A stretch of 64,000 nucleotides of DNA from Chthoniobacterales bacterium (GCA_044236545.1 JBIIGI010000002.1:134-64133); one strand, 5' to 3'; shown: positions 17,110 to 33,833, counted from the stretch's first letter. Numbers and translations are program-made. The notes: generated from the letters alone by a model not told the origin.

Positions 17110-17116
17110 GGGAAAA

Positions 17117-18835
17117 TCAGCCGATGGTTTCAACGACGGAATTGATCAGATTCGCGAGGTGGTGTCTGTCTCCGAGGCGGCTCTTCACGTCCGCCGCCAG
17201 CGGACGCAGAAACTCGATCGACTCCTGGAGCGTGGCGTGCTGCGGATAACCCTCGATCCTTTCCAGAGGAACCCCAGGCTCGCCGCAGAGATGCTGAAGA
17301 AGGAGGACAAGCCAGCGGAATCCCTTATCCGTCTCCATTTCCGGGTGCTTTTCGAGCAGGTGCAGGAGGCCCTTTACCTCCGTGTGGATGGTGTGATGCA
17401 CGTCCGCGGCGACCGCCGAGCGGAAGCCGGACTGGGTGCTGAGCGAGGCAAACTGCTGCCGGTCGATTCGGATCACCCGGAGCGTTGCCGGACGGCGCAC
17501 GCCAGTGGTCGCGAGTTCGCGGCGGTTACCCAGCAATCCAAGATCCCCCAGAACTGCGGGACCCGAGATCTCATGGACAACCTCGACCTCCGACCCTGCC
17601 ATGCAGGAATCCGACTCGTCTTCTTCCGAACAGCTGATGATCAGGGGTTCGCTCGACTCCAGGATCACCACCATCGCTTCCGAGACCTCACCCTGCCGAA
17701 GAAGCGGCTTCTCGGGCGTGAGATGGATCGTCTCAATCTTGTAGGAGGAGGCCGGATCGTCGATCGCATGGAGCAGGATGGCTCCCATCAGTTTGCTGTC
17801 CGTGTGGGTGCATGGTATTTTTTCATAGGCCTCCCAGAGTGCCGCCACATCCGGTCGCTCCATAAGCTCCTCCCTGAGTCGCTGGCGTGCGGCCTTTTTG
17901 GCCGCCTTGGCCTTTTCTTGGCGCAACTCCATCCATTCGGCGTAAACCGGCTCCATCTCCTTGAGAACCGAGCGGTCTGGGAAAAGCCAATTGCGGGAGA
18001 GTTCATCAATATGCCGATCGATATGCTCCTCCATGGAGATTCCGGTCATCGCGGCCGTGACCGGAACCATTCGGAGAGCCGTTTCGCGCGCCATCGCGGT
18101 GATCCGTTCGCCGGGGGGATGCGACTTGAAGCGTTCTTCGTAGGCGCGGCAGAACTCGTTCTGGGCATGAAAGTCCTTGGGCGCGCGGGATAGCCCCGTG
18201 GCTTTGCCCGTCTGGTAGAGAATAACGGTGAGGTTTTCACCAAGCCTTTGCCATGTCCGGCTGCCGGGCCGCACACCACAGGCGCGGTAACCGCGCATGA
18301 TGTTGTCCACATAGGAGGCGGAGATGTAGGCGAAGTCGGCCTCGTATCCCGGCATGACTTCGGCGCCGGACTGTCCCTCGGCAAGATTGAGTATCCCTGA
18401 GGGAAGAACAACTCCTGCCACATGATGGCGTAGATTGACCACGCGGATGACTTCATGAAGGAACTTGGAATTCCGCGGCATCTTGAAGATCTGGCTGAAC
18501 TCCCCGGTTCCAAAGAGTCGTTCCCCTGCCCTCAGGTGCCCCCCGTTGCGATAGGTCGTGGCCACGACGGAGCTGGCACGAAGGGTCTGGTAAAGCGCCC
18601 CCCATCCATAGCCGAGAACGTCGCGCGTATAGTGCCCACGGTAGGCCAGCAGATTCCTGAAGGTGAAGAAACGGGTTAATAAATTGAAGAACGAACTCCT
18701 GCGACGGTCATTCCACTCCTTCTCGGAAATTTCCGGGATCGGCTGGATCATCTCTGGGGGAATGTAATCCTCGAGCATCCCGCGGTGCCGGACAGCACCA
18801 CCTGACTGATGGAAGGGGCATTTTGAGATGTTCAT
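17117..18835 (-). CDS. Hypothetical 572-aa protein: unknown N-terminal domain (weak MpaB/DUF2236-like RxxH motif) plus a cNMP-binding-like beta-barrel region
   Basis: Long ORF whose ends are coupled to the P450 (4-nt overlap) and to PLD. Residues ~370-465 (LLRQGEVSEAMVVILESS...GPAVLGDLGLLGN...RRPATLRVIRIDRQQFASL) resemble the CAP/cNMP effector-domain pattern. VIRVVNLRHHVAG resembles the MpaB-family motif. Confidence 0.6.
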   Translation of the reverse strand: MNISKCPFHQSGGAVRHRGMLEDYIPPEMIQPIPEISEKEWNDRRRSSFFNLLTRFFTFRNLLAYRGHYTRDVLGYGWGALYQTLRASSVVATTYRNGGHLRAGERLFGTGEFSQIFKMPRNSKFLHEVIRVVNLRHHVAGVVLPSGILNLAEGQSGAEVMPGYEADFAYISASYVDNIMRGYRACGVRPGSRTWQRLGENLTVILYQTGKATGLSRAPKDFHAQNEFCRAYEERFKSHPPGERITAMARETALRMVPVTAAMTGISMEEHIDRHIDELSRNWLFPDRSVLKEMEPVYAEWMELRQEKAKAAKKAARQRLREELMERPDVAALWEAYEKIPCTHTDSKLMGAILLHAIDDPASSYKIETIHLTPEKPLLRQGEVSEAMVVILESSEPLIISCSEEDESDSCMAGSEVEVVHEISGPAVLGDLGLLGNRRELATTGVRRPATLRVIRIDRQQFASLSTQSGFRSAVAADVHHTIHTEVKGLLHLLEKHPEMETDKGFRWLVLLLQHLCGEPGVPLERIEGYPQHATLQESIEFLRPLAADVKSRLGDRHHLANLINSVVETIG

Positions 18836-20190
18836 GCGGTCAGTTTTTCAAGACGTAGCAGCACCGGTTTTTCAGGCCTCAGGGTCACGATCGGTCGTGG
18901 CAGGATGGTGCCCAGCTCCCAGAGCCTAGCTCGGAATCTCGTGAGGAGAGTGGCCAAAATAATCTGGGACTCGATCATCGCGAATCCCATTCCCATGCAT
19001 ACCCTGGGACCTGATCCGAAGGGAAGGTAGGCAAACTTGTTGGGCTGCTCTTCTTTCCCCGGCTCGAAACGCTCGGGTCGGAAAAGATCGGGTTCCTTCC
19101 ATAGGTCGGGCTTTCGATGGATGGCGTAGGAGCTGATGATCACGAGGTCCCCCTTGGAGACGGATGTCTCTCCGAGCCGATCAGCCCCCAGGGCACGCCG
19201 ATCGATCATCCAAACGGGTGGATAGAGGCGCAGGGCCTCCATGAAGACCATGCGGAGGCGCTTGAGACGGTGGATATTCGCGAAGGTGGGCGTCTCTCCG
19301 CCTAGTTCACGAAGCACTTCCTCCCTGAGAACTTCCTGCTCCTCTGGGTGCCGGTCAAGAAGGTACCAGATCCAGGAAAGGGCATTGGCGGTGGTTTCAT
19401 GCCCGGCGATCAGCATCGTCATCACCTCGTCGCGCAGTTGCCGATCAGACATTGTTTCCCCCGTCTCCTCATCCTTTGATGATATCAGGACGGTGAGGAG
19501 ATCCGGGGAGGAGCCACCTTCTGCTCCGGCTTGACGGATGCGCGCACGCTTCCGCTCGATCATCCCGTCCACGATCCCTTGGAATTCACGCAGCGCGGCT
19601 CTGAGCCCTCGGTTACCTTGTGTCGGGATCCAAAGCGGCAATGCGATCCCGCTGGTAACCCGTCGTGCCAACTCGTTGAGAATGGTGGGAAAGAGTCTGT
19701 AAATCTCAGCGGCTTTGTCCGAGAGATCCGCCCCGAAGAGACATTCGGCGACCCCCTCAAGGGTCGTTCTCATCATCTCCGCGCAGGCATCGACCGGCGT
19801 GCCCTCCGAGGCCGCGCGTTCCCACCGATCCCCGCACTCCGCGGCAAGTCGCGAGAAAATGGGTGAAAGTCGCTCCAACTTGTCGGCATGGAAGGCGGGT
19901 TGGGCTATCCGCCGCTGGCGTCTCCAGAACGCTCCATTGCTGGTGAGCAGACCATTGCCTAGCGCCACGCTGACCGAGCGGAAAGCAGGAGTGCGCTTAT
20001 CGTAATTTGCCTGATTCTCGACGAGGACATGCCTGACAAGCGCCGGATCTCCAATTAGGAGCCCCCGCTTAGGACCGATTCTAAGCGGAGTGACGGCGTT
20101 TTCCCGAGCTGACTCGGTGAAGATAGCCAGCACTTCGGTTCTTAGTCGGGGAAGATCGCCGAGCAGATAGTGTTTAAGAAATCCGATCAT
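18832..20190 (-). CDS. Cytochrome P450
   Basis: Heme-thiolate loop FGSGPRVCMGMGFA, I-helix AGHETTA and K-helix/PERF region (EALRLYPP, FRPERF). Confidence 0.9.
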   Translation of the reverse strand: MIGFLKHYLLGDLPRLRTEVLAIFTESARENAVTPLRIGPKRGLLIGDPALVRHVLVENQANYDKRTPAFRSVSVALGNGLLTSNGAFWRRQRRIAQPAFHADKLERLSPIFSRLAAECGDRWERAASEGTPVDACAEMMRTTLEGVAECLFGADLSDKAAEIYRLFPTILNELARRVTSGIALPLWIPTQGNRGLRAALREFQGIVDGMIERKRARIRQAGAEGGSSPDLLTVLISSKDEETGETMSDRQLRDEVMTMLIAGHETTANALSWIWYLLDRHPEEQEVLREEVLRELGGETPTFANIHRLKRLRMVFMEALRLYPPVWMIDRRALGADRLGETSVSKGDLVIISSYAIHRKPDLWKEPDLFRPERFEPGKEEQPNKFAYLPFGSGPRVCMGMGFAMIESQIILATLLTRFRARLWELGTILPRPIVTLRPEKPVLLRLEKLTA

Positions 20191-20993
20191 GGCAGGGCGC
20201 CGTTGCCTTGAAGAAGATTCTGAACGGCGTTTCTCGAGGAGGTCGCCAGGATTTGGCGATCCTCCACTGATAAACCTTGTGTGGTAACGGGTTCTCCAAT
20301 TCGGACCTCCATGCTCGCAGGACGGACGCGGAATCCCCCGCGACGGAGCATCCTGTTACTTCCGACGATGCAGATCGGAAGGATGTCGGCACCAACGATG
20401 ATTGCGGAGGCAAAGGTGCCGGCGGAGAATTGCGCGACCTTTCCATCATGGGATCTCGTCCCCTCTGGAAAACTGACTGTCCACTCACCGCGTGCAAGGG
20501 CTTCACTCAGTTCGGAAATCCCGGCGGTAGCGCGACGCCGCGTCGACCGATCTACAAAGATGGTGCCGACGGCTTTACCAAAAGCACCAATAAGAGGAAT
20601 GGATGACAACTCGCTCTTTCCGATGAAATGCACGGGAAGGGGAAGTGCGCGGTACAGGATCGGAATGTCGGCGTAGGATTGGTGATTGCAGACAACAAGG
20701 GTCGGGCGTGAGGGGTTTATGTTTTCCAATCCTGAAACCCGGAGACGGGAAAGCCCTCCCCCGATGATGATCGGCGCCCAAAGATGACGGGCCATCCAGA
20801 GCGAAGGTTCCGAACGCCTTGTGAGAAAGCGAACCAGAAGCGCCGGAGGGATCAGGAGCATGCAGACTAAACCGAGGCTAATGGCTTGGATCAGATTGAC
20901 CGGCGCCCAAAGCAGCGTCTCCCACAGACTCTCTGCATCGGATTGCTCCCTGCAGATTGCGTCGCCCAAAACGCCGCAGTTGTCCTTGATCAT
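20187..20993 (-). CDS. PlsC/LPLAT-family 1-acyl-sn-glycerol-3-phosphate-type acyltransferase (copy 1)
   Basis: HX4D motif VCNHQSYADIPIL, FPEGTRSHDG and an N-terminal TM. Internal ATG 20993 lies 5 nt after the desaturase stop. Confidence 0.85.
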   Translation of the reverse strand: MIKDNCGVLGDAICREQSDAESLWETLLWAPVNLIQAISLGLVCMLLIPPALLVRFLTRRSEPSLWMARHLWAPIIIGGGLSRLRVSGLENINPSRPTLVVCNHQSYADIPILYRALPLPVHFIGKSELSSIPLIGAFGKAVGTIFVDRSTRRRATAGISELSEALARGEWTVSFPEGTRSHDGKVAQFSAGTFASAIIVGADILPICIVGSNRMLRRGGFRVRPASMEVRIGEPVTTQGLSVEDRQILATSSRNAVQNLLQGNGALP

Positions 20994-20998
20994 CGGGA

Positions 20999-21964
20999 TC
21001 ACGGGGTTGGCTTTTCCGGCAGAGCGACCTTGACGGAATTTGCCAGTCCTACCCATTTCATGGCGGAGATCACCATCCAACTCGGATCGATCTGCCACCA
21101 CTCGAGACCATGCCGCGCGCTGGTCGGAAAAGCATGGTGGTTGTTGTGCCATCCCTCCCCTAGACCAAGAATTCCCATCAGGGCGTTGTTGCGGCTCTCG
21201 TCGCCGGTCTCGTGATCATGGCTTCCCCAGAAGTGACAGATGCTGTTCACGCTCCAGGTCACGTGGTGAACCATGAAGACGCGCACCAACCCTCCCCAGA
21301 TGAAACCGAGCAGCGCACCGGTCCAGGTCCACGTGACCAAGCCCGCGATCACTGTCGGAATCAGCAATCCCAACACCACCCAGAGCGGGAAGAGTCGGTT
21401 GATGGTCACAATGCGCGGATCAGCCAACAGATCGGGAGCGTAGCGGGTCTGATCTGTATGGTTGTACTCATCATAAAAGGTCCATCCCACATGGGCGTGA
21501 AGGAGCCCCTTCGCCGCGCCGAGAAACCCGGGCTTCCTGCCAGCATGCGGTGAGTGGGGATCCATCTCCTTGTCGGAGTGTCGGTGATGCCTGCGATGCG
21601 TGGCCACCCACCAGATGACAGGGCCCTCGATCGCCATGCTACCGAGGATTCCAAGTGTCCAGACAACGGCCGGACTGGTCTTGAAGCCCGCATGCGTGAA
21701 GAGCCGGTGAAACCCGATCGTGATGCCGAAGCCGGTCAGCAGATACATCACGACGAAGAGCGTCAGGTAAAGGGGGCCGAAGTAACCGCCCCATAGCAGG
21801 GCCATTGCCGCAATCACGCCGATCGGCGGCAGGAAGACCACCACGATGCGTATGAGCTTCCAGAGAAGGGTGTTGGGCTGTACCCAACGAACCTCATTTC
21901 CCGTACCCTTCGGCACATTCTCATTGGCGATTTCTTTATGCATGGACGGTACAATACTACTCAC
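20999..21964 (-). CDS. Membrane acyl-CoA/acyl-lipid desaturase (stearoyl-CoA 9-desaturase family), copy 1
   Basis: Three His boxes: HRLFTH, HRRHHRHSD and HNNHHAFP. Confidence 0.9.
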   Translation of the reverse strand: MSSIVPSMHKEIANENVPKGTGNEVRWVQPNTLLWKLIRIVVVFLPPIGVIAAMALLWGGYFGPLYLTLFVVMYLLTGFGITIGFHRLFTHAGFKTSPAVVWTLGILGSMAIEGPVIWWVATHRRHHRHSDKEMDPHSPHAGRKPGFLGAAKGLLHAHVGWTFYDEYNHTDQTRYAPDLLADPRIVTINRLFPLWVVLGLLIPTVIAGLVTWTWTGALLGFIWGGLVRVFMVHHVTWSVNSICHFWGSHDHETGDESRNNALMGILGLGEGWHNNHHAFPTSARHGLEWWQIDPSWMVISAMKWVGLANSVKVALPEKPTP

Positions 21965-21989
21965 TAATCCTTTAACAAAAACAAGTTTC

Positions 21990-23183
21990 CTAGGGCATCC
22001 GGGACCACGACATCAGGAGATTCGCCCAGACATCCAGTCGCTCTTTTAAAGTCGCTTCCGGATTAACGGTTCCAGTTTTTTGGCTGAAGTAACTTTTATT
22101 TTCCAAAATCAGTTCCAGATAAGCCTCTCTCAGCGCATTTATGAAGTGATCTGCCGTTGTTGATTCATCCCACGGCACAAAACGATGTCGCAGGCCAAGT
22201 GCCGCCGCGCGTGCCGCATTCTTTTGCTGCTCGGGTTGTGCCGTGACGATGAGAAGAATAGGCTTGTACAGAGACTGAGCAGTGGCGAGTGCCGCCATGC
22301 CGGGAGCTGACACAAGCACCTCGGCGCGGGATGCGATATCGATCCAATCCGTTGCGTAGGGCTGCCATCCGGGGCGCCCTGCATACCCCTCGCCTAGGAA
22401 GAAAACGGGATTCCCAGCGGACTCATCGCCACTTTCCTGACGATGTTCATGTGGAGAGTGGACAATTGCTTCCTGAAGCCCCCTTTCCAAGGCGTCTGCC
22501 AAGGCAGGATCGGAAAAATGAGGGTTAAGATAGACCGCGACTTTCCGAGAGGGCGGCTTGCCCCGCCCCTCATCGATCAAGGCAATGGGGGTGGGCAATT
22601 GATGTTCCGGCGATGAGCAATCCACCTGCCCGGGAAGCGGGAAGGCGAAATCATGCACAAGCCTTCCCCGGGCTCGCGACAGCCCCAGTCGCACCAACCA
22701 ACGGAAGAAATGCGCCCAAGGGCCCATCATGCGTCCCATGAAGTTACGTTCGAGGGACTCCCTCAAACTCCAGCCATAAACATGCACGGTTCGCTTGCGC
22801 CAAGGGTGGAGACCTCCCATCACCAGAAGGGCGGGGTGGAAGGAATCGTTCACGATCAGATCCACCCCGGCTGCTCGATGTGACAAGCGGCGGATATCAC
22901 GGAGCATGTGCCAGGGCAGGAAAAAATAGGTCGCGATCCGCAGATCCGTGGCCCATGTCCGCATTTTTTGTCTCTTGTCGAAAAGCACCGTGTAGTGACG
23001 CGACAACACCTCGGCCGGCACCCCGAATTCGGCGAGGAATTCGCGACCTTCATCCGATGTGGTGAGAACCGAAACTTTCGCCCCTCGGGCACATAGGGCA
23101 TGATAAAGCAACTGTCCGCGCATCAGATGCCCCCTCGCGTCGGCGGTGGCCATCAGGAGAATGTGAGGTTTTAAAACAGACAA
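21990..23183 (-). CDS. GT-B fold glycosyltransferase, GT28 (MurG/MGDG-synthase)-like
   Basis: N-terminal HILLMATADARGH glycine/His loop. C-terminal AEVLVSAPGMAALATAQSLYKPILLIV..QPEQQKNAARAAALG resembles the MurG donor-binding region. TTG start. GC looks lower than the neighbours by eye. Confidence 0.55.
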   Translation of the reverse strand: MSVLKPHILLMATADARGHLMRGQLLYHALCARGAKVSVLTTSDEGREFLAEFGVPAEVLSRHYTVLFDKRQKMRTWATDLRIATYFFLPWHMLRDIRRLSHRAAGVDLIVNDSFHPALLVMGGLHPWRKRTVHVYGWSLRESLERNFMGRMMGPWAHFFRWLVRLGLSRARGRLVHDFAFPLPGQVDCSSPEHQLPTPIALIDEGRGKPPSRKVAVYLNPHFSDPALADALERGLQEAIVHSPHEHRQESGDESAGNPVFFLGEGYAGRPGWQPYATDWIDIASRAEVLVSAPGMAALATAQSLYKPILLIVTAQPEQQKNAARAAALGLRHRFVPWDESTTADHFINALREAYLELILENKSYFSQKTGTVNPEATLKERLDVWANLLMSWSRMP

Positions 23184-23285
23184 AACGATGAGTTGCTAAA
23201 GGATGTATGACTGACCTCGGTGGTTAAAATAGACCTAGGCCATTAGAGGCCAGCACCTATTATCGTTCCAGCATTTTGCCCATCA

Positions 23286-24098
23286 ATGCACGCACGTCAC
23301 GCCAGTCCTTTATCAGAGGACACGCCCTGCCCTTTGAAAGAGAGCTTCCTCAAATTCTTGCTCTGGATGCCCGTGAACATTCTTCAGGGGATCTGCCTTG
23401 GCGTCCTGTGTGGAGTCGTGATTCCACTGGCGATTGCAGCCCGGAAGATTTCCGGAAATTCCGAACCGGCCCTTTGGATGGCTCGAAATGTCTGGGCGCG
23501 GGTCATTCTCGCGGGCGGCCTCTCCAGCTTGCGCGTCGAGGGGGTGGAAAACTTATCCCTCGGGAGCCCTGCGCTCATTGTCTCCAATCACCGATCTTAT
23601 GCCGATATTCCGATCCTCTACCGGGCACTTCTGATTCCGCTTAATTTTGCAGGCAAAAAGGTGGTGGAACGCATGCCGCTGATCGGAATGTTTGGGCGTG
23701 CCGTTGGGATGATTTTCCTCGACCGTTCCACCCATCAACGCGCCGCCAAGGGCATCCTTGATCTCAAGGCTGCATTGGAATGCGGTGAATGAATGGCTGT
23801 TTTCCCGGAAGGAACCCGATCGGTGGACGGAACTCTCGGCCGCTTTGCCTCGGGATCATTTGCCGCGGCAATCGCAGTAGGCGCGGATGTCTTGCCGGTG
23901 GCAATTTTGGGAAGCGATAGGATGCTGCGCAGGGGTGGCTTCTTGGTGCGCCCCTCAAGGATCCGAGTGCTGATCGGAAAATCGATTCCCACGACCGGTC
24001 TCGCTTCGGGCGACCGTTTCGAACTGGCGGCGAAAACCAACGCTGCGGTATCGGCACTGATCGCAGGCGCAGACCCAAGTGCGTTAAGGAGTCGCTAG
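23286..24098 (+). pseudogene. PlsC/LPLAT acyltransferase copy 2, interrupted by an in-frame TGA (23790-23792) directly followed by ATG
   Basis: ORFs 23286..23792 and 23793..24098 are in the same frame. The join ALECGE*MAVFPEGTRS aligns to copy 1 ALARGEWTVSFPEGTRS. HX4D (SNHRSYAD) lies in the first piece and FPEGTR in the second. Confidence 0.7.
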
Positions 24099-24823
24099 CG
24101 GCTCCTTAATTCGTGAACAGGCCACCCGCTTAGCAGTGCCTTGCGGGCAAGTTCCCTGTCCGGGGTGACTGCGTTTGGAAATCCCACCGAGTGTAGCAAG
24201 GGAAGATCGTTGATGCTGTCGCTGTAGGCACTGGAAGCGGCGAGGTCAATCCCTCGCTCCCCGGCTAATGAAACAACCGCCTTCGCTTTCTCCAGGCCAT
24301 GCAGAATACCCTGCGGGATGCGACCGGTGTAGCGGCCGGCCACCACTTCGGCGCGGGTCCCAAGGCCCCCGGTGAAGCCCAAATTCTCCGCCAACATCTG
24401 CGATAGCTCCTGTGGCGAGGCGGTCACGATCCAAACCTCCTTTCCGCTATCGAGATGGCGGCGGGCCATCTCCACAACAACGTCTCGGATGGCAGGCCTG
24501 ATCGACTCGTCGATGATTTCCCTGCCGATGCAAACCATCTCGGCGACTTCGGCACCCTTCACGAAGGACGCGGCGAAGTTTCCCCAGATCCGCGGAGCCC
24601 CCGTCAGCTCTTTCCGGGTGAGCATGAAGCGTAGATTGGCGAGGATGAAACGCGCCGCCTCGACGGGTGAAAACATTCCCCTCTTAAAACCTCCCCAGCC
24701 GAGATGAAAAAGCGAGGAGCCGCTGATCAGTGTGTTATCGAGGTCAATGAATGCCGCTGATCGGCCGGTCATCGTCCCGGTTTTCATCGGCAACCCAGGC
24801 CCGTCATGACCGGAAGGATCCAT
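24095..24823 (-). CDS. HAD-IB family hydrolase (SerB/phosphoserine-phosphatase-like)
   Basis: AAFIDLDNTLI (DxDxT), VTASPQEL and SDSINDLPLL motifs. Confidence 0.8.
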   Translation of the reverse strand: MDPSGHDGPGLPMKTGTMTGRSAAFIDLDNTLISGSSLFHLGWGGFKRGMFSPVEAARFILANLRFMLTRKELTGAPRIWGNFAASFVKGAEVAEMVCIGREIIDESIRPAIRDVVVEMARRHLDSGKEVWIVTASPQELSQMLAENLGFTGGLGTRAEVVAGRYTGRIPQGILHGLEKAKAVVSLAGERGIDLAASSAYSDSINDLPLLHSVGFPNAVTPDRELARKALLSGWPVHELRSR

Positions 24824-24828
24824 GATTC

Positions 24829-26760
24829 TTATTTCCTAAAGCGCCGATGCAAACTCAGCAACATCACCAGATAAGCGATCAGCATGACGCCAACCAACTG
24901 CAGAGAGAGGGCTCCGATGGCTTGCCCCGTCGTGAAATGCTCCCCGATATCGTAGAGGGGAAAAGGGGATTTCAAGGTGACGTAGTCGATGGTTCCCCGG
25001 AAAGCCCAGAAAGCCGGGATAAAAAGTTTGGCAACCGTTGTCAGCGCCCCTCCCGTCAAACGGATCAGGATTCCTCCGAGCAGCAGTTGGGGAAGGATGA
25101 GAATGGGAAGAGTCAGTAGAGCCTGCTCGCGGGTCTTCACGAGCCCTGAAATGGTCAGGCCAATGCCAGCACAGACCATAGCGGCCAGCCAACTGACCAG
25201 AAGGAACGGACCCGTGGCACCCAGATGCGCTCCCGCCGCAGTCAGTCGGAGCGTTTCCTGAAGCAAGCAGACCCCCGGAACGATCTGGATGGCCAGTACA
25301 ATCCCTAAGAGAACAATTTTCGAAGCGATGTAGGCACTGGTTCTGACCCCGTTGGTGGACTCCCGTTCGATAATGGGTCGCTCCTTCACGATCTCCGTCA
25401 GCCCGGCAAGAAATCCCAGGATAAGAATTCCGAACAAGATCGTGAACCGGAATTTCCACGTCGGCCATGGATTGATGATTTCCCGCTCTGGAACAACGGG
25501 AATCCGCCCGGCGAGCGCTTTCTTAACCAGCGCAGCTGTTTCTGGAGATCGCAGTCGTTCCTCCAAGTGCTGCTCTTTGTCCAAAAAGACGCGGATTTGG
25601 GCGGGGATGCTGACGTCATCCGATTCATCGCCCTCGGTCAACGCAAGGGCCCGTAATGTGTGACCCCAAAGCTGTCCGGCCAACTGGATTTCCCTGGGCT
25701 CCAGCGGTCGGGAGATAATCGTCTTTTGTCCGAAGTTTTCGAAGGCAAAACCAACGTAGGCAAAAGCCACCATGAGCAATGGCACCCCAATCAGGAAAGC
25801 AAGGGAGCGCCTGTCGCGGAAGAGAACCTCCAGCCCCCGCTGCAGCAGGGCGCTAAACTGACGGAACCACCCCGGTCTCATGGCCGTCTGGTGTGGTTTG
25901 TCTTCAATCACGGAGTCATCCTTGGCCTCTCCCTCCTGCAGTTGAAAAACCTTGTGCAGGCCGACCCATTGTTCGACAGGCAGATCCTCAAGCAGCAAGT
26001 AGATCTGGGAGAGCCGATGGACGCCAAAGTGATCCAGCGCCTCTTTCACCCCGCCCGACCAGACCAAATGTCCGGAGGCAAGGATGAGCAGGCGGTCGGC
26101 AAGTTTTGCGTTTTCAAGGTGATGGGTGATGCAGAGAAGAGTGATCGAGTATTTTTTCGCATACTCGGCTAGGAGATGCATGATCCGGGCATCACTGGCC
26201 GGATCGAGGCTGCTTGTCGCCTCATCGACAATCAGGATGCGGGGAAAGGAGAGCAGTTCCACAGCAAGGCTGACCCGCTTCGACTCCCCTCCGGACAGAT
26301 TTCCAACCTTCGTGTCATGAAGGTGGGCTATTCCCACATCCTTCTCGATGGCATGGATGCGCTCGGCGACCTCTTGCTTGCTAAGCGAGGGAGGGAGTCG
26401 CAGTTTGGCCGCATATTGCAAAGCCCTTCCGACCGGCAGTTCGTCATGAACAATTTCCTTCTGGGGCACATAACCGATAAGGCCGTTGAGGATCTCGGCG
26501 TCTCCGCTCACCCTTAGCGATCCGAAGAGGATTTCCCCTTTGCTCGGAGTCAGCTGTCCCAGCAGCGTGCGCACCAGCGTGGTTTTTCCAGCGCCGCTCG
26601 GCCCTAGCACACAGACAAACTCGCCGGGCTTCACGGAGAGCGAGATATCTTTGAGCAACTCGGGGCCGGAATCGCCTGCAGACACGGCGAGTCCCTCCAC
26701 CTTGAGCGACAGGCTTCCTGCGGCTGAGGGAGATGGGGTCAATGGCAGGGGTGTTGTCAT
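24829..26760 (-). CDS. Fused ABC transporter: N-terminal ATPase plus C-terminal ABC-2 type permease (ABCG-like half transporter)
   Basis: GPSGAGKTT, LSGGESKRVSLAVEL and ILIVDEATSSLD, followed by a ~6-TM C-terminal domain. ATGA overlap with the upstream gene. Confidence 0.85.
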   Translation of the reverse strand: MTTPLPLTPSPSAAGSLSLKVEGLAVSAGDSGPELLKDISLSVKPGEFVCVLGPSGAGKTTLVRTLLGQLTPSKGEILFGSLRVSGDAEILNGLIGYVPQKEIVHDELPVGRALQYAAKLRLPPSLSKQEVAERIHAIEKDVGIAHLHDTKVGNLSGGESKRVSLAVELLSFPRILIVDEATSSLDPASDARIMHLLAEYAKKYSITLLCITHHLENAKLADRLLILASGHLVWSGGVKEALDHFGVHRLSQIYLLLEDLPVEQWVGLHKVFQLQEGEAKDDSVIEDKPHQTAMRPGWFRQFSALLQRGLEVLFRDRRSLAFLIGVPLLMVAFAYVGFAFENFGQKTIISRPLEPREIQLAGQLWGHTLRALALTEGDESDDVSIPAQIRVFLDKEQHLEERLRSPETAALVKKALAGRIPVVPEREIINPWPTWKFRFTILFGILILGFLAGLTEIVKERPIIERESTNGVRTSAYIASKIVLLGIVLAIQIVPGVCLLQETLRLTAAGAHLGATGPFLLVSWLAAMVCAGIGLTISGLVKTREQALLTLPILILPQLLLGGILIRLTGGALTTVAKLFIPAFWAFRGTIDYVTLKSPFPLYDIGEHFTTGQAIGALSLQLVGVMLIAYLVMLLSLHRRFRK

Positions 26761-28997
26761 GGCAATTGGTCTTCGTAGGCTGAGACGGGAAGGGCGGGAT
26801 CAAGGGGTTTCTTGAATCGGTAATATTTCTCGTCCTCGGTGGTTGCTCCCGTTCGGAGAACGGTTCCGTCCGGCTGCACTTCAAAGGGGAGGTGATCGTC
26901 GTACAGGCCCCTCAGAGCATGTGCCCGTACGCCCGAAGCCTCGAACTCCAGAAACCCGCTGTTCCCCGTGGGATCGATCACCTTGTCCGAGGTAAGAAGC
27001 AACCAAGGAAGGAGCATTTCATCCGAGGTTGATTCTCCAAGGAACACGGGGCGCGGTGGGCTGAAGGGATTTTTCGGATTTGCCGAGCTGTTGTCGTAGA
27101 TGGCCGAAAACCTGATCTTGGTTCCCTTGGGCAAAAAACGGGGCTCTTTGAAAAAGTACGGCTGCTGCCATTCGTACTGCCAATGTGGGACCTTTGCGAT
27201 CGTGAATTGGCTTTGATCCGGAAGGATTGCTACTGCATCAAGGGACTGGGCCAGCAGGTGCGCATGGGGGGCCATGCCGGCAATCATGCAATCTTCAGGA
27301 ACAGTCCACTCCCCGCTGACCTTCATGTTCTTCATCCCGGCGGGAATGACTACAAAGTTGCCGTGAAGATAACGGATGCTCACCTTTTTCGGGGGAATCT
27401 TTCCATCCTTGCCAAGCCAGAGTGCTATCCGTGTGGAATCCTCAGCCTGGATTCCGGTGCGATGATAGTGCATCTGGGCAATGAGATCACTTCCTGCGGG
27501 GATGATGAAATCGGCATCTGCGGGAGCCGTGTAGGCACGTGTGCCCGGAACGTAGCCGCTGAGAAAGCTGATGACAGGCATGCCGTCCGGCCTCGGCGGG
27601 GGAATGCGAAATCCCGCGCCATGACGAGCCCAGAACCCGGGGCCACTATCACCCTGGGTGAAGGTGGGCCCGGGTCCGCCATGGTCACGAAGAGCCTGCT
27701 CCGCTTCGGTATACGGCAGATAACCTATGAGCGCGTGATGCACGATTGAACGGTTGGAGGGAAGCAATTGGATGGCCCGAACATGCAGGTCTGCGCTGTT
27801 GTTGAGCGTAAAAACAAGATGGCGATAGATATCACTTCCGATTGGCCCTAGGTGGAACGGCTCCCCTTGCTCGAGAATGATATCGGGAGGGCCGAGGTCT
27901 TCCTGAAACTTGGAGAAATCGGCCAAGGGAGGCAACGGGGAGGCCGAGTTTTCGTCTCCTTCGGGCTTCCCCGACTTGATCCAGGATTCGAGTGTTGCCA
28001 GTTCCGCAGCACTGATCGTATTTGCATTACGGATCGCCAGATCGCTCTCCACTTGGGCGGGCGGCATCCGGCCGGCCTTGATCTCCCGAAGGCCCGTCTT
28101 CATCCAGTCCACGGCATCGTCGTAGCTGGTGAGGGTAAACGGGCCCGCATTTCCCTCGCTGTGGCACGACATGCAATGGTTGCGTAAAATAGGGGCCACA
28201 TCCTTGTGGTAGGTGATCATGCTTTCCGTGGAAGCCGCGGGAGTAGATGCAGGAAGTGGATCCTGACGCACGATCGCGCACCCGACTGGAAGCGTGCGGG
28301 GAAGACGAACCACCGATCCCGCTACGACATCACACAGCGCCTCCCGCAGGTCTTCCCTCACGGGAGTTTGGCTTTGCACGCCGCGGACCTGATAAAGATC
28401 GTTGATGCGGCCCATGTATCGAACTTTTGCATCCCGATCCAAAACGAATGCCTCCGGAGTCGCCGTGGCGGAGAGCGCGGAGGCCACCTTGCCCTCGTTA
28501 TCCACAAACAACGGGAAGGAGACCCCGTAATCCTTTTTGAATTTTTCCAAGTCGGCAATCTGCGTGCCATCGGTAAAAACCCCGAGAACTTGCACGCCCT
28601 GAGGCTGTTTCTCCTTCCAGAGTTTTTCCAAGACCGGAGCAACCCTCTGGCATAAGGGGCAGGTGTCATATAGGAACACAATGACTGTGGCCGATGTCCC
28701 GGTGCATTCCGACAGGGGGCGTAGGGCTCCCGAAGGGTCGTTAAGGTTGAGCGTGCTCGTGGCTATCGGCGTCTCCGGCAAGGGATCGAGATGACTCTGC
28801 TGAACGTTCGGCGCCCCTTCTCCTTCTTGGGTGGGTTGGTTTTGCGAAAAAGCAACCCCCTGCGTCCAGAGAAGCATGGTCACGACTATCAATACCCCGA
28901 GGCATCCTCTTCCGGATGAGAAGTATGGGGGATGAAATGTCATCGGGGGTTGGATTTGACGGCACGCATGGTGACAGATCTCACGAGTCAAGTGCAC
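26757..28997 (-). CDS. Secreted tri-domain protein: TlpA/redoxin (CPLC) + c-type heme site (CMSCH) + copper type II monooxygenase (PHM/DBH)-like domain
   Basis: VIVFLYDTCPLCQR redoxin motif. VAPILRNHCMSCHS is a PSCyt-type cytochrome c motif. His clusters (IVHHALIGY, MHYHRTG, MAPHAHLL) resemble Cu-monooxygenase ligands. The start may be ATG 28943 (MTFHPP...). Confidence 0.75.
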   Translation of the reverse strand: MHLTREICHHACRQIQPPMTFHPPYFSSGRGCLGVLIVVTMLLWTQGVAFSQNQPTQEGEGAPNVQQSHLDPLPETPIATSTLNLNDPSGALRPLSECTGTSATVIVFLYDTCPLCQRVAPVLEKLWKEKQPQGVQVLGVFTDGTQIADLEKFKKDYGVSFPLFVDNEGKVASALSATATPEAFVLDRDAKVRYMGRINDLYQVRGVQSQTPVREDLREALCDVVAGSVVRLPRTLPVGCAIVRQDPLPASTPAASTESMITYHKDVAPILRNHCMSCHSEGNAGPFTLTSYDDAVDWMKTGLREIKAGRMPPAQVESDLAIRNANTISAAELATLESWIKSGKPEGDENSASPLPPLADFSKFQEDLGPPDIILEQGEPFHLGPIGSDIYRHLVFTLNNSADLHVRAIQLLPSNRSIVHHALIGYLPYTEAEQALRDHGGPGPTFTQGDSGPGFWARHGAGFRIPPPRPDGMPVISFLSGYVPGTRAYTAPADADFIIPAGSDLIAQMHYHRTGIQAEDSTRIALWLGKDGKIPPKKVSIRYLHGNFVVIPAGMKNMKVSGEWTVPEDCMIAGMAPHAHLLAQSLDAVAILPDQSQFTIAKVPHWQYEWQQPYFFKEPRFLPKGTKIRFSAIYDNSSANPKNPFSPPRPVFLGESTSDEMLLPWLLLTSDKVIDPTGNSGFLEFEASGVRAHALRGLYDDHLPFEVQPDGTVLRTGATTEDEKYYRFKKPLDPALPVSAYEDQLP

Positions 28998-29964
28998 TTA
29001 TTATCGTGGCATGAGGGAGGAGGTGCGATTTTGACCGCAGTGGCCAACCCGAGATGCCTCATCATCGAGATCACCATCCAGCTCGGGTCGATCTGCCGCC
29101 ACGTGAGTCCATGGCGGGCGCTGGACGGGAAAGCGTGGTGATTGTTATGCCATCCCTCTCCGAGACCGAGAATCCCCATCAGGAAGTTGTTTCGGCTCTC
29201 GTCACCGGTCTGGTGATCCCGGCTTCCCCAGAAGTGGCAAATGCTGTTCACGCTCCAGGTGACGTGATGAACCATGAAGACCCTGACCAGACCGCCCCAG
29301 AGGAACCCCAAGAATGCCCCGGTCCAGGTGTGGGTGACCACGCCGGCGATCACCCCAGGAATGAGCAATCCGATCACGGCCCAGAGGAGAAAAAGCCGAT
29401 CGATGGTGACGATGCGGGGGTCAGCGAGCAAGTCCGGGGCGTAGCGTTGAGGATCGGTCCGCGTGGAGTCAGAGTTGAAAAACCATCCCATGTGGGCATG
29501 GAGAAGTCCCTTGATGGCTCCCAAGATACCGGGCTTCCTGCCTACGTGGGGGGAATGGGGATCCATTTCCTTGTCGGAGTAGCGGTGATGCCGCCGATGG
29601 GTGGCAACCCACCAGATGAGGTTACCCTCCACCGCCATGCTGCCAAGAACTCCCAGCGTGTAGACGATGGCCGGGTTGGTCTTGAATCCTCCGTGGGAAA
29701 AAGACGGTGAAATCCGATTGTGATTCCAAAACCGGTCAGAAGGTACATCACGCCGAAGAGCGCCAAATACATGGGGCCGAAATACCCTCCCCAAAGCAGG
29801 ATCATCGCAGCAATCACGCCGAGAGGCGGCAGAAAGATCACCACAACGCGGATCAACTTCCAGAGGAGAGTATGGGGTCGCTCCCGATGCAACGCATTCG
29901 CCCCCTTCAGTGCGTGATCATGGACGATTTCTCCTCTCATAAGCAGTGGGAAACTATCCCTCAT
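28988..29964 (-). pseudogene. Membrane fatty-acid desaturase copy 2, frameshifted within His box 1
   Basis: ORF 29542..29964 reads ...GFGITIGFHRLF, then goes out of frame. ORF 28988..29794 picks up ...SHGGFKTNPAIVY..HRRHHRYSD..HNNHHAFP. The frames meet at the A5 run 29698-29702 (T5 on the coding strand). One extra T would restore HRLFSH. Confidence 0.75.
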
Positions 29965-30766
29965 CCTTTTTCAAAAACAAGCGTGCGGGGACACGACGCT
30001 CTTCCGCAGATGAGTAGTCTTTCACGCATGCCCCCCGGGAAAAAAGGGTCAACCGGGAGTGGTGCGGTTTCCTGCCAAGGGATCGGCACGGCGGGATGGC
30101 GTGATACCTCATAGCGGCCGATTCACCTGAGACCTCCAGGATGGTCATGCTCACTGTCTCTGCGTCATCCCTGTGCATGCAAATTGAAGCGGCCCCCTCA
30201 TCCGGATCGTGTGAGGAGTGTAACCGCTCAAGCCACGGAAGCGTGCCGGCATCAGGTTCCTCAGCCGCCTTGAGACATGCGGCACTCCTTGTCGTGATGG
30301 CGGAGGCTTCATCGTGTCCCGAGGAAAACCAATGGGCCGTGGTCAAAGGGTGATCCACCCGTTCGGTTCCGGATCCCTCCGAGCGGTATTCACGGATGCC
30401 GTCGGCGCTCCTGCCGATCACAAAGAGACGGAATGGATTCAATCGTTCCAGCGGAAGCAAAAACAGGCTTCGTTCCATGTCGTCCAGTGAAGGGAAGGCA
30501 AGGAGCCGCGGGATGATTGCGCCACGACTGAACGCCGGATCTCCTTTGTATTGTGGGCGTGAGTACCAGTTGATCAAGGCTACACAGAGTCCCGCCTCAT
30601 TGATTCCGATCCAGGTCCCACCGGCCGGTTCAAAGGGGTAGAGGGCGGAAAGATCGCCGCACCGGTGCACGGCGGGAGGAAGGGCTGCTGTGCGGGCGCG
30701 CTGTTCATCGCGGTTCATCCCGAGCAGGATTCCGTCGGCCTTGGGGACAAGGGAAAGGGTGCACAT
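29954..30766 (-). CDS. NRDE-family (TANGO2/DUF833-like) protein
   Basis: Starts MCTLSL (Cys2, Ntn-hydrolase-like) and carries the eponymous GMNRDE motif. Confidence 0.8.
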   Translation of the reverse strand: MCTLSLVPKADGILLGMNRDEQRARTAALPPAVHRCGDLSALYPFEPAGGTWIGINEAGLCVALINWYSRPQYKGDPAFSRGAIIPRLLAFPSLDDMERSLFLLPLERLNPFRLFVIGRSADGIREYRSEGSGTERVDHPLTTAHWFSSGHDEASAITTRSAACLKAAEEPDAGTLPWLERLHSSHDPDEGAASICMHRDDAETVSMTILEVSGESAAMRYHAIPPCRSLGRKPHHSRLTLFSRGACVKDYSSAEERRVPARLFLKKDEG

Positions 30767-30770
30767 CGGA

Positions 30771-32399
30771 TCAGTCGGCGACAGGGTGACAACGGCTGAG
30801 ACGGCGGTAGGAAATCCACTCCCTCAGGATCGTAGTGACGGAATCAGGACGATGTCCCCGCTTTCTGTTTTCCGCTCCGATGGCAAAGGCGAGTTCCCAG
30901 TGACGGAAAAGCAGGGCAAACGCCTCCGTGATCCTCTTCGAGGCGTCGTAGGCGCTGGTCGGTTCCCCGGCCACCCCGTTGAGCTCAAGGATCTGGAATC
31001 CCCGTCCCTGGCCGAGGGCTTGGGCCGACTCGTAGCGCACGTCGTAGCGTCCGATAAAGAACCCGTGAAGAGCTTTCGATATCCGGTCAATGGATCCCTC
31101 CAGCTCCTCCGTACAAAGAGACATGCCGTCGCTGAAGAGGCATCCTTGGGCGTGGTTTCCGGCCTCGACGAGACGGAGCGCCTCCCCTTGTTGAAGCACG
31201 TGGCCCCGTCGCTCGTGGAATCGTCTCAGCAATGTCTCCGATTGGTTTCTGGCACGCTCATCCCCCAGAATGAGTTGCTCGATGGTTTGCTCTCCATCGC
31301 CGATGAGCTTCGGGAAATGCTTTTCCGTGATGGCCAAGATCCTCCCCTTCTCCGCGCCGGGAAACCGGTAGTAGAAGATTCCCGCCTCAAGTGGTCCGGG
31401 TACATAGCGCTGGACGATCACGGGCAGCGGAACCGCCTCCAGATATGCCCCCGCCTCTTCTCGGGAGCGGATGACTTTGAATCCGCTCCCGCGCAATCCG
31501 AGATCCGGTTTCAGGATGACCGGGTAGTGTGTCCCGCTGTCGCTGAGGAAGTCATCAAAGGCGGCAATCCTCGAACCGGTCAAGTCATCCACTGCTTCCG
31601 GAATCAGTGCCGTTGCCGGCACGAATTCGGGTGAGGTTTCCAACAGCTCTCTCAGGGTGGCGAACTTGGATTCACCCACCAGACCTCCTGTCTTGATGCC
31701 GGGATTGGCGGCGCTCGGCAGGGTGATGGAGCCGTGTTGCACCGAGAGGGTCAGGTAGCGCCATGCGATCGGGAGATAAAAGATCCATGCGGGCCAGAAC
31801 TCCCACCGCGTGAGTCTCTCCAGGGCGGGTAGTTTCGAGAGCGTGCGGATCAGAAAGCCGGTGAGGCGGATTCCAACGATAAGAAGAACCATCCCCCCGA
31901 GAATCCAGAGCAGATGACCCTTGAGTGCGTGGATAAAGTCGGGTGCGGCATGCCCCAGCAGGTGAACGATGAGAAAGACCGCAATAACCCAAACTGCGGC
32001 CAATGTTCCGGTCAGAAGAAGAAACAGCGCGGTATCCATGCGGAGAAAACCCGCCGCCAGGAATGTCGGCAGTCTCAGTCCTGGAATAAACCTCGAGACG
32101 GCGATCGCCACGATGCCGCTCTTCCGGAACCATTCTTCACTCCGCTCGATCCGCTCTTTCCAGCGTGATCCCGACTTCAGGAAGCGCGAGGCCATCGGTC
32201 GCCCGCCATGCTTTGCGAGCAGATAGAGAAGGAAATCCCCGCTCCAGATTCCTCCGAAGCACGCAAGAAAACCCTCCCAGGGGATGAGGGTGCCGGAGGC
32301 CACCGCAAGACCGCCTGCCAGCACAGCGGCATCCTCTGAGAGATAAGTGAAGAAGAAGAGAGCAATCAGCTCCCAAATCCCATGCGGAGAACCATCCAT
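30771..32399 (-). CDS. Fusion protein: N-terminal DedA/VTT membrane domain plus C-terminal ATP-grasp carboxylate-amine ligase-like domain
   Basis: N-terminus FFFTYLSEDAAVLAGGLAV and 5-6 TM helices. C-terminus PVILKPDLGLRGSGFKVI (ATP-binding Lys loop), VIVQRYVPG and FQILELNGVAGEPT (the ExN Mg-ATP motif of the ATP-grasp fold). Confidence 0.7.
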   Translation of the reverse strand: MDGSPHGIWELIALFFFTYLSEDAAVLAGGLAVASGTLIPWEGFLACFGGIWSGDFLLYLLAKHGGRPMASRFLKSGSRWKERIERSEEWFRKSGIVAIAVSRFIPGLRLPTFLAAGFLRMDTALFLLLTGTLAAVWVIAVFLIVHLLGHAAPDFIHALKGHLLWILGGMVLLIVGIRLTGFLIRTLSKLPALERLTRWEFWPAWIFYLPIAWRYLTLSVQHGSITLPSAANPGIKTGGLVGESKFATLRELLETSPEFVPATALIPEAVDDLTGSRIAAFDDFLSDSGTHYPVILKPDLGLRGSGFKVIRSREEAGAYLEAVPLPVIVQRYVPGPLEAGIFYYRFPGAEKGRILAITEKHFPKLIGDGEQTIEQLILGDERARNQSETLLRRFHERRGHVLQQGEALRLVEAGNHAQGCLFSDGMSLCTEELEGSIDRISKALHGFFIGRYDVRYESAQALGQGRGFQILELNGVAGEPTSAYDASKRITEAFALLFRHWELAFAIGAENRKRGHRPDSVTTILREWISYRRLSRCHPVAD

Positions 32400-32942
32400 T
32401 CAGGAACGGGAGAGGGCACTTTCCTTCCGGTAATGGACGGTCGAGGGGGCGACTCCAAATCCCTTGGGGAGGAGGGCGCCAAGCGACCGGCAGATCATCG
32501 CGATAAGGGCGTAGTGATGGATCGCATGAGAAATGGAGAACATAACCTCCCTCTCGAAGGAGGAGTGCACGACGGGTGAGTGGCTCTCCGTATAGGAGAC
32601 CCCGCATCTCACGGTCACGGGGGAGGCGAGGATGGAGGTGTCGAGAGAGGAGGCCAGATCCTGAAGGTGACGTGTCATTTCAAGTGCCGCGCGACGATTA
32701 TTCTCGAGTTCTGGATCACGTTTGCGGGCGTCGTAGTCGATCCCGCCGGAGGCATCGCCCGTCAGTAGCGCCCCGAAATGATCGAGGCAGTGACGATAAT
32801 GGGCCCCGATCGAGGCTCCCGAGGCGATCGGAAGCATCGCCGTGTAGGTCGCGTCATCGAGGGAGTCGAGCAGGGAGGTTCCCTGCGCAAGAACCGCACC
32901 TAGGGATTCGATCAGTGTGTTGGCGGCCGTTTCCTTCTCCAT
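32400..32942 (-). CDS. DinB-family (DinB_2-like) four-helix metalloprotein
   Basis: His-rich helices IGAHYRHCLDHF and SISHAIHHYALI. ATG 32942 shares one base with the DoxX stop, and the stop abuts the next gene's start. Confidence 0.55.
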   Translation of the reverse strand: MEKETAANTLIESLGAVLAQGTSLLDSLDDATYTAMLPIASGASIGAHYRHCLDHFGALLTGDASGGIDYDARKRDPELENNRRAALEMTRHLQDLASSLDTSILASPVTVRCGVSYTESHSPVVHSSFEREVMFSISHAIHHYALIAMICRSLGALLPKGFGVAPSTVHYRKESALSRS

Positions 32943-33346
32943 CAGGGGAGCAGCTTGCCGATCACGGGAATGGAACGGCGATGGATCAGGAGAAGAATGG
33001 CTGAGCAAAGGGCGACGGTGAGCGCCAATCCGAAGAGCAGGCCATGATCATTCATGACCACGATGCCGAGCACTGTCAGGTGACTCATGATTGCCCCTCC
33101 CATTACGGCGAGCGCGAGGCCGGCGCCTAGCCAGACGGTTCCCGGGATCAGGAGCAGGATCGCAGCGATCAGTTCGGCGATTCCGGAGCCGATGCGGCCC
33201 GGGGCTCCGAGTCCTACCTTATCGAAGATGTAGACCGACTCGGGTGCGGCGGTGAATTTGAAGAACAGGGTCTGGGCCAAGATCACGGCGGCGGTGATCC
33301 GAAGGAGCCAAGAGAGAATGGAGAGTGCTTTGGAGGGTTGGTTCAT
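32942..33346 (-). CDS. DoxX-family membrane protein
   Basis: 134 aa with four TM helices. RITAAVILAQTLFFKF...GIAELIAAILLLIP is typical of DoxX. Confidence 0.75.
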   Translation of the reverse strand: MNQPSKALSILSWLLRITAAVILAQTLFFKFTAAPESVYIFDKVGLGAPGRIGSGIAELIAAILLLIPGTVWLGAGLALAVMGGAIMSHLTVLGIVVMNDHGLLFGLALTVALCSAILLLIHRRSIPVIGKLLP

Positions 33347-33383
33347 GGTGGAGTCAGGCGTTGGTCAATGATCAGAGAGGTGG

Positions 33384-33833
33384 TTACTTGCCTTTTTTCT
33401 CCTCGAGGAGGGGCCAGTTTTGGTCTGCCTTCCCGAGATTCACGGCGGCATCTTTGTTGAACTTTTCCATGATCCCCTTGCTGTACTGGAGGAGGAGCCG
33501 GCCGTTCACGATCTGGAATGCCGTGGGATCGATTTCGACCAACGATCCTCTTGAGAGGCCATAGGCACAGAACCCTCCGAACTGCGGTTCGTACTTGGCG
33601 GGATTGGTGTCGAAGGTCGCCTTGTGCTCGGGGGTGGCGAAGTAGTAAGTCACCCCATCGGCGGTGCTGGTGATCGAGGAGTTCCCTTGGATGGCCTTGG
33701 CGTCAGTGAAATAGGCGACCGGGTCGTATCCCTTGATGCCGAGTCCATGGCGGTCGACATTGACCAGCGTTTTTGCGGGTAGTAATGAGGTCGCCGCAAG
33801 AAAGAGGAGCGGGGTCAGGAAGCGGTTCTTCAT
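33384..33833 (-). CDS. Secreted YHS-domain protein
   Basis: Internal ATG 33833 gives the signal peptide MKNRFLTPLLFLAATSLLPA. KGYDPVAYFTD...YYFATPEHKATFDTNPAKYEPQFGGFCAYG is the YHS/TRASH-like pattern. Confidence 0.8.
   Translation of the reverse strand: MKNRFLTPLLFLAATSLLPAKTLVNVDRHGLGIKGYDPVAYFTDAKAIQGNSSITSTADGVTYYFATPEHKATFDTNPAKYEPQFGGFCAYGLSRGSLVEIDPTAFQIVNGRLLLQYSKGIMEKFNKDAAVNLGKADQNWPLLEEKKGK

Follow-up and report, generated by a model that had tools for sequence, protein, structure and literature searches.

Do nine closely packed, co-directional genes make up one functional system? The question is raised by the minus-strand run at positions 24095-33833 of a 64,000-nucleotide (nt) stretch of DNA from a Chthoniobacterales bacterium (GCA_044236545.1 JBIIGI010000002.1:134-64133), hereafter referred to as the window. 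A sequence-only reading of the window had proposed that they do, and that the nine genes constitute a membrane-lipid oxidation, repair or remodelling system in which an O2-dependent desaturase step is coupled to periplasmic redox supply and an ABC exporter. The comparative data point to a different answer. The run is very probably a composite, containing a conserved core that is linked to OlsB/OlsA-type aminolipid genes. Our best explanation overall, to which we assign a probability of roughly one half, is that the first module of this composite performs a membrane-bound, ATP-dependent modification or remodelling of an aminolipid head group, and that a second module is separate from it. The nine genes, in the order of transcription, are:

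33384..33833, minus strand, YHS (seleno)protein family member in its Cys form, signal peptide at the N-terminus; accessory to the core module
32942..33346, minus strand, DoxX-like small membrane protein; accessory gene of the core module
32400..32942, minus strand, DinB-superfamily protein of 180 amino acids (aa); core gene
30771..32399, minus strand, DedA/VTT::ATP-grasp fusion; signature gene of the core module
29954..30766, minus strand, TANGO2/NRDE-family protein; core gene
28988..29964, minus strand, fatty-acid desaturase, frameshifted, paralogue of an intact copy at 20999-21964
26757..28997, minus strand, 746-aa thioredoxin/haem c/PHM-like protein, first gene of an independent two-gene pair
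24829..26760, minus strand, ABC ATPase::ABC-2 permease fusion (ABCG-like half transporter), partner of the 746-aa protein
24095..24823, minus strand, HAD-IB hydrolase (TIGR01490 match)

The coordinates and all junctions were reproduced by open reading frame (ORF) listing and translation, exactly as the sequence-only reading had described them. YHS and DoxX are separated by 37 nt, and DoxX and DinB share 1 nt. DedA::ATP-grasp begins immediately after the stop of DinB (32400/32399) and is itself followed by TANGO2 after 4 nt. The end of TANGO2 overlaps the start of the desaturase (29964) by 11 nt. For the 746-aa gene two starts are available: with GTG at 28997 its first 10 nt are shared with the desaturase, which ends at 28988, and with ATG at 28943 the two genes are 44 nt apart. 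The 746-aa and ABC genes overlap at ATGA (26757-26760) and a gap of 5 nt precedes HAD. This spacing is compatible with a single transcript. In a consensus scan for promoters and terminators over 23000-35000, promoter-like sites were no commoner than in shuffled sequences and terminator-like matches lay inside genes; an Rfam scan of 14000-40000 gave no match. Most of the original family labels held: HAD-IB, ABC, AhpC/TSA, FA_desaturase, TANGO2, VTT and YHS score above their cut-offs and ATP-grasp is recovered by fold, while the DinB_2, DoxX and Cu2_monoox_C matches are sub-threshold.

Conservation of the nine-gene run

To establish which of the genes belong together, all proteins of the window were compared by tblastn with 84 fetched loci, 82 of which are from other genomes. 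DinB was recovered in 81 and TANGO2 in 79 of the 84 loci, at fixed offsets and on the same strand; DoxX was found at a fixed offset in 59, and YHS, upstream and co-directional, in 45. The desaturase and HAD were found in none of the 84 loci, the 746-aa and ABC genes occurred together in a single one (L005), and any tail gene at all was present in only one of the 48 loci that extend at least 6 kb downstream. Thus, the nine genes do not co-occur across relatives; the five-gene core does, and the tail is lineage-specific. Considering that the core is conserved, the tail nearly absent and the 746-aa/ABC pair independent (see below), the nine genes read as a concatenation of modules, which by these comparisons is made up of a five-gene module (29954-33833), an inserted broken desaturase paralogue, a two-gene module and the HAD gene.

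That all nine form one system is in our view very improbable. The tight co-directional packing, with gaps of at most 37 nt, speaks for it, as does the nearest long relative (L086, 92% identical), which keeps the order from YHS through TANGO2 and the desaturase to the 746-aa gene. In addition, the whole neighbourhood is rich in lipid genes, and in another relative (L088) the co-directional lipid array is longer still and extends into genes for a desaturase, an acyltransferase, a P450 and PLD (phospholipase D). Against this stands the fact that the operon ends after TANGO2 in relatives that are still 90% (L087) and 87% (L001) identical, that the tail genes are missing from 47 of the 48 loci with enough sequence, that the 746-aa/ABC pair occurs without the core in Planctomycetia, that HAD is found at this position in the window only and that the desaturase is both frameshifted and a redundant paralogue. 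The sequence-only reading had itself named as its refutation several independent promoters together with a block that is conserved in no relative. This applies only in part: L086, the nearest relative with enough sequence, preserves the order from YHS to the 746-aa gene and more distant relatives do not.

The desaturase, on which the proposed O2-dependent tailoring step depended, does not sustain that proposal. An FA_desaturase domain is found above the curated cut-off in 28988-29964, yet this interval measures 977 nt, a length not divisible by 3, and the gene is distributed over two reading frames. When it is aligned with the 326-aa orthologue of L086, which is intact, a 1-nt deletion is seen in the T run at 29698-29702, within the first His box (HRLF(S/T)H); it had been missed when the gene was taken to be an intact member of the operon. 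The frameshifted copy is 77% identical to the intact desaturase (20999-21964), located 8 kb away, and as judged from the alignments is a redundant paralogue rather than an intact gene. The frameshift may be a sequencing error, as it sits in a homopolymer; however, a second redundant paralogue nearby, an acyltransferase described below, is disrupted as well, in that case by a substitution. The two duplicated lipid genes of the region thus look to be decaying. In L005 the desaturase is precisely missing between TANGO2 and the 746-aa gene.

The 746-aa protein is predicted to be periplasmic and to consist of three parts: a TlpA/ResA-like thioredoxin domain (AhpC/TSA above cut-off), a CxxCH haem c site and a PHM/DBH-like putative copper domain. 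The Cu2_monoox_C match on which the latter assignment draws remains below its cut-off (E 0.012, 15.5 bits versus 23). The residues H420, H421, H510, H578, H580 and M661 (HH...H...HxH...M) and the CxxCH site are invariant in 15 homologues. The AlphaFold2 (AF2) model of the protein is poor, with a predicted local distance difference test score (pLDDT) of 56 overall and below 50 for residues 354-537. Its partner carries ABC_tran and ABC2_membrane domains above curated cut-offs. The two genes are paired in L005, L088, L089 and L090, and two Planctomycetia-type contigs without the core have them side by side or almost so. As far as these contexts tell, they are an independent periplasmic oxidoreductase/exporter pair, module 2, which extends to Planctomycetia. 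The final gene of the run matches HAD-IB at 140 bits (TIGR01490, cut-off 98.3) and is absent at the corresponding position in L088; the distribution indicates that HAD-IB and the frameshifted desaturase are recent lineage-specific insertions.

A further protein hints at a link with this pair. The window encodes at 11497-13110 (plus strand) a 537-aa Acyl_transf_3 protein with inserted ankyrin repeats, and a homologue of the same architecture is located at 9055-10671 in the Planctomycetia-type contig L090, there between the 746-aa-type gene and its ABC partner.

The identities along the run also disclose a mosaic ancestry. Between 30555 and 32942, DinB and DedA::ATP-grasp are 87-92% identical to L001/L087 and only 49-61% to L005/L088. 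For TANGO2, the 746-aa and ABC genes and the lipid genes further downstream, the identity to L005/L088 is 81-94%, with TANGO2 only 44-67% identical to L001/L087. One putative breakpoint falls close to the junction of DoxX and DinB, the other some 200 nt inside TANGO2. This pattern suggests that DinB and DedA::ATP-grasp were exchanged as a unit.

Proteins of the core module

The signature protein combines a DedA/VTT domain (approximately residues 1-190; PF09335, 53.9 bits versus a cut-off of 33.9) with a C-terminal ATP-grasp domain (approximately residues 260-540). Within the former, E22, D23, D55, R103 and R109 are invariant in an alignment of 15 sequences. The ATP-grasp half matches no Pfam or NCBIfam ATP-grasp family at curated thresholds. 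The AF2 model (pLDDT 84.6) shows an N-terminal helical membrane domain followed by an ATP-grasp domain, and a Foldseek comparison with the PDB returned the G domain of the cyanophycin synthetase CphA1 with a probability of 1.00 (E 4e-10), followed by CphA2, GshAB, Ddl and CPS. The identity to these proteins is 11-20% among the matches listed, and the best sequence matches of the ATP-grasp half agree with the fold matches. At the level of the predicted structure, the ATP-grasp fold of the C-terminal half is thereby confirmed. K297 and E472-x-N474 are invariant in 15 sequences that share 46-87% identity; from family knowledge we take these to be the ATP-binding Lys and the Mg2+-binding E-x-N motif, respectively. 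Two further motifs by which the ATP-grasp domain can be recognised are NH[AC]QGC[IL]F and GF[FY]IGRYD. In cyanophycin synthetase, GshAB and Ddl a carboxylate is activated as acyl phosphate, after which an amine is joined to it, and the DedA::ATP-grasp protein is accordingly modelled as a carboxylate-amine ligase. The likeness to the CphA G domain, GshAB and Ddl extends over fold, sequence, the ATP-binding Lys and E-x-N, whereas the N-terminal DedA domain and a conserved WEFWP linker are found only in the family of the window.

Full-length homologues measure 525-550 aa. Relatives of the protein are present in 267 species genomes, mostly of Verrucomicrobiota and some of Alphaproteobacteria, and those nearest to the window are metagenomic contigs and metagenome-assembled genomes labelled Chthoniobacterales or Spartobacteria, which makes a freshwater or soil habitat probable for the bacterium of the window. 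A stand-alone ATP-grasp homologue (L096) had an uninformative genomic neighbourhood.

The TANGO2 protein scores 33.9 bits against PF05742 (cut-off 22.6), and its C2 and N18-R19-D20-E21 are invariant in 12 orthologues. Its similarity to human TANGO2 is weak (E 0.025 over residues 12-90), although the two have PF05742, the NRDE motif and Cys2 in common. The crystal structure of human TANGO2 (2026) resembles three amidases that act on fatty-acyl or steroid-acyl amides, namely bile-salt hydrolase, acid ceramidase and NAAA. Cys2 and NRDE were proposed as the catalytic apparatus of the human protein, which the structure suggests to be a Cys-Ntn (N-terminal nucleophile) hydrolase for fatty-acid derivatives (PMC13044924). 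The window residues C2, N18, R19, D20 and E21 match human Cys2, Asn25, Arg26, Asp27 and Glu28 (PMC13044924), and we predict that the protein of the window is a Cys-Ntn amidase or acyltransferase.

The DinB protein of the window scores 21.9 bits against DinB_2 and thus stays below the cut-off of 24.8, yet DinB_2 is matched by all 19 orthologues (best E 4e-7). Invariant in the ortholog alignment are H48, H51, H55, D71, E80, E132, H139, H142 and H143, and the six His together with the acidic residues are consistent with a metalloenzyme. A comparison of the DinB alignment profile with PDB sequences yielded no meaningful match. Regarding the two accessory proteins, the matches of DoxX to Pfam DoxX and DoxX_2 are below threshold, and YHS scores 131.9 bits against NF041384 (cut-off 70).

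Linkage to aminolipid genes and the proposed reaction

The genes that diverge from YHS in the window encode an OlsB-like and an OlsA-like acyltransferase, and belong to their families by Acetyltransf_5 and Acyltransferase matches, respectively. An OlsB-like gene is located within 10 kb of the core in 21 of the 82 loci, and in 12 of the 39 that have full flanks. Its placement relative to the core is variable, with five or more arrangements: divergent from YHS (the case in the window), upstream and co-directional, between DoxX and DinB, downstream of TANGO2 and co-directional, and downstream on the opposite strand.

More explicit connections were obtained through the domain fusions. A HMMER search of the whole library with the ATP-grasp domain alone recovered 1124 clusters at E <= 1e-30, with several architectures. 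A Pfam scan of the long forms revealed abhydrolase::VTT::ATP-grasp proteins of around 790-900 aa and TANGO2::abhydrolase::VTT::ATP-grasp proteins of 1121-1130 aa (P0286, P0335). In two loci (L092, L093) overlapping genes give the order OlsB-OlsA-[abhydrolase::VTT::ATP-grasp], and in two others (L094, L095) OlsB-OlsA-DinB-TANGO2-[abhydrolase::VTT::ATP-grasp]-YHS constitutes one overlapping operon with YHS as last gene. A DinB gene is found directly upstream of TANGO2::abhydrolase::VTT::ATP-grasp in L091, and in L014, a single case, DinB is fused in frame to DedA::ATP-grasp. A second candidate for a DinB fusion, P0257, was rejected, as its N-terminal 200 aa are not DinB. Taken together, the fixed order of the core genes, the adjacency to OlsB that is kept although it is shuffled, and the fusions argue that DinB, DedA::ATP-grasp and TANGO2 act together, and do so with synthesis of the OlsB/OlsA type. 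The substrate shared with the divergent OlsB/OlsA operon, as suggested in the sequence-only reading, is therefore supported for the first five genes, and for these only. Given the recurrent linkage and the presence in the same operon elsewhere, the connection is much firmer than the divergent transcription by itself had indicated.

From the observed composition, conservation, fusions, folds and catalytic motifs of the module we infer a substrate and a reaction. On the cytoplasmic side of the membrane, OlsB and OlsA would produce an N-acyl (acyloxyacyl) amino-acid lipid. DedA would hold the ATP-grasp domain at the membrane, where the latter would activate a carboxylate by phosphorylation and link it to an amine; the most likely target is the free alpha-carboxylate of the head group. 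The DedA domain would bind or flip the lipid. The TANGO2 Cys-Ntn enzyme would hydrolyse or transfer the amide-linked acyl or head group, in turnover or editing, and the DinB metalloprotein would take care of a further metal-dependent step. YHS and DoxX would be envelope partners, to which we assign no role. This chemistry, in which the module would ligate and edit the head groups of acyloxyacyl amino lipids, is put forward tentatively, at clearly less than even odds. It is suggested by the fold matches, K297 and E-x-N, Cys2 and NRDE of TANGO2 and the His residues of DinB, in combination with two precedents: the transfer of taurine onto the carboxyl of ornithine lipid is ATP-dependent and its gene has not been identified (2026 review, PMC12971839), and the alpha/beta-hydrolase OlsI is an aminolipid O-acyltransferase in Planctomycetes (PMC12493201).

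The comparison with known systems can be drawn further. Products of OlsB/OlsA are the substrates of the ornithine-lipid modifiers and of the cerilipin taurine transferase of Gluconobacter cerinus. In the cerilipin reaction the carboxylate of the head group is converted into an amide at the expense of ATP (PMC12971839), and this is the chemistry of ATP-grasp ligases, whereas OlsC, OlsD, OlsE and OlsG are hydroxylases or a methyltransferase, and not ATP-grasp, DedA, TANGO2 or DinB proteins. OlsH/OlsI of Planctomycetes likewise combine an ATP-dependent aminolipid amide with an alpha/beta-hydrolase acyltransferase (PMC12493201), and abhydrolase::DedA::ATP-grasp variants adjoin OlsB/OlsA; yet OlsH is a GH3-type adenylating enzyme instead of an ATP-grasp protein, and the module of the window coexists with OlsB/OlsA and does not replace them. 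With MprF the resemblance is functional only: in both, a domain that modifies the lipid head group is joined to a membrane domain for the handling or translocation of lipid, but MprF uses aminoacyl-tRNA, a GNAT-like synthase domain and an MprF-type flippase where the window has ATP-grasp and DedA/VTT, and there is no sequence relationship.

The same genomic linkage to OlsB/OlsA would also fit an order of events in which the ATP-grasp domain builds the head group before acylation, as a dipeptide or modified amino acid for OlsB, or re-ligates a fatty acid to the deacylated lipid, with TANGO2 or the abhydrolase as deacylase. Ddl-like and L-amino-acid-ligase-like folds among the matches, and the presence of both an amidase (TANGO2) and an esterase-type domain, agree with these possibilities. 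The fusion to the DedA membrane domain, on the other hand, favours a membrane-resident substrate over a soluble dipeptide, and we know of no ATP-grasp enzyme that activates long-chain fatty acids, which argues against reacylation. We consider both variants unlikely.

Several observations weigh against the modification of an aminolipid head group by the core module. The OlsB-like and OlsA-like proteins score 124 and 128 bits where the NCBIfam equivalog cut-offs are 350 and 300, so that these matches do not fix which amino acid is used, and the structural ATP-grasp matches cannot identify a substrate either. In around two thirds of the fully flanked loci no OlsB gene lies within 10 kb, and the loci of Alphaproteobacteria contain only DinB-DedA::ATP-grasp-TANGO2. 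The in-frame DinB fusion of L014 could be an assembly artefact. Moreover, DoxX, YHS, DUF1223, AhpC/TSA and a ferric-reductase/Rieske protein recur near the core and are not explained by a ligase, and genes for ECF (extracytoplasmic function) sigma and anti-sigma factors are frequent there.

These redox-type neighbours keep another interpretation alive, namely that the product or substrate of the core is a low-molecular-weight thiol or other redox-stress metabolite. The ATP-grasp protein would then be a GshB/GshAB-like peptide ligase, DinB a thiol S-transferase, TANGO2 an EgtC-like amidohydrolase and DedA an exporter, with DoxX and YHS as membrane or periplasmic thiol/metal partners. GshAB is indeed one of the best matches in structure, thiol transferases are known from the DinB superfamily, and DoxX, the YHS (seleno)protein, DUF1223, AhpC/TSA and the ECF sigma genes are the recurrent company of the core. 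Such a role nevertheless gives no reason why OlsB/OlsA have repeatedly entered the same operon, in several lineages, or why an alpha/beta-hydrolase is part of the fusions, and a conserved cysteine or glutamate ligase partner gene is lacking. We consider it improbable.

In loci of the Limisphaerales type (L025, L081, L064 and others) the region about 2-4 kb upstream of the core contains an ECF sigma gene (25 loci), a zf-HC2-like anti-sigma gene (20) and a gene for a DUF1223-like CxxC protein (20). In the lineages with the abhydrolase fusion, a ferric-reductase-TM (transmembrane)/Rieske fusion and a protein of around 255-270 aa precede the OlsB/DinB/TANGO2 genes (L091 2253-4222, L094 1381-3185). 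The sigma/anti-sigma genes and the redox-type neighbours suggest control by envelope stress.

Neighbouring lipid genes and meaning of the module

The membrane-lipid theme that the sequence-only reading saw in the region was borne out by the genes on either side of the run:

33939-34706, plus strand, OlsB-like N-acyltransferase (Acetyltransf_5), divergent from the core
34622-35455 (ORF), plus strand, OlsA-like O-acyltransferase (Acyltransferase), divergent from the core
35452-35790, plus strand, small cupin gene, 3' of OlsA
35787-37217, plus strand, ChrA-family transporter, 3' of the cupin gene
23286..24098, plus strand, PlsC-type acyltransferase paralogue with an in-frame TGA at 23790-23792, convergent with HAD
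15712..23183, minus strand, second lipid array: 397-aa protein, desaturase Des1, PlsC-type acyltransferase, P450, 572-aa protein and PLD-like protein

Stops and starts overlap throughout OlsB-OlsA-cupin-ChrA (33939-37217, plus strand), and the same order is found in L001, L086, L087 and L088. A gene of the chromate-transporter family is thus part of an aminolipid operon.

An array like that at 15712-23183 directly continues the operon 3' of the ABC gene in L088, on the same strand; in the window, HAD and the convergent, TGA-interrupted acyltransferase separate the ABC gene from it. The 397-aa protein of the array has weak similarity to CGA-synthase-related proteins, and Des1 is a DesA-like desaturase. 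The TGA at 23790-23792 aligns to a Trp codon (TGG) in the intact paralogue PlsC1 (20187-21152). For this reason selenocysteine was rejected, and a nonsense transition in a redundant acyltransferase copy is the likely origin of the codon.

No description of the core module turned up in literature searches that combined DedA or TANGO2 with ATP-grasp. All component families are known; their combination, the fusion and the link to aminolipids are not reported in the literature searched. The locus further illustrates that tight co-directional packing alone over-calls functional operon units, as three or four independent modules and two decaying paralogues appear to be concatenated here.

It is possible, though on balance doubtful, that DinB, DedA::ATP-grasp and TANGO2 are the missing head-group ligase and editing system of the cerilipin type, a chemistry that has lacked a gene since the 1970s, and that amide-linked fatty-acyl amino-acid lipids are, by homology, the native substrate class of TANGO2. 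If true, an ATP-grasp domain fused to DedA would be a new type of enzyme in aminolipid biosynthesis and a candidate for an orphan activity that is known only from enzyme assays, and the DedA-family proteins would gain a defined lipid client. The bacterial operon and the fusions put TANGO2 beside enzymes of N-acyl and O-acyl lipids. The TANGO2 family, to which the recent crystal structures have assigned no substrate and which underlies a human TANGO2-deficiency disorder, would thereby gain a concrete and testable substrate class.

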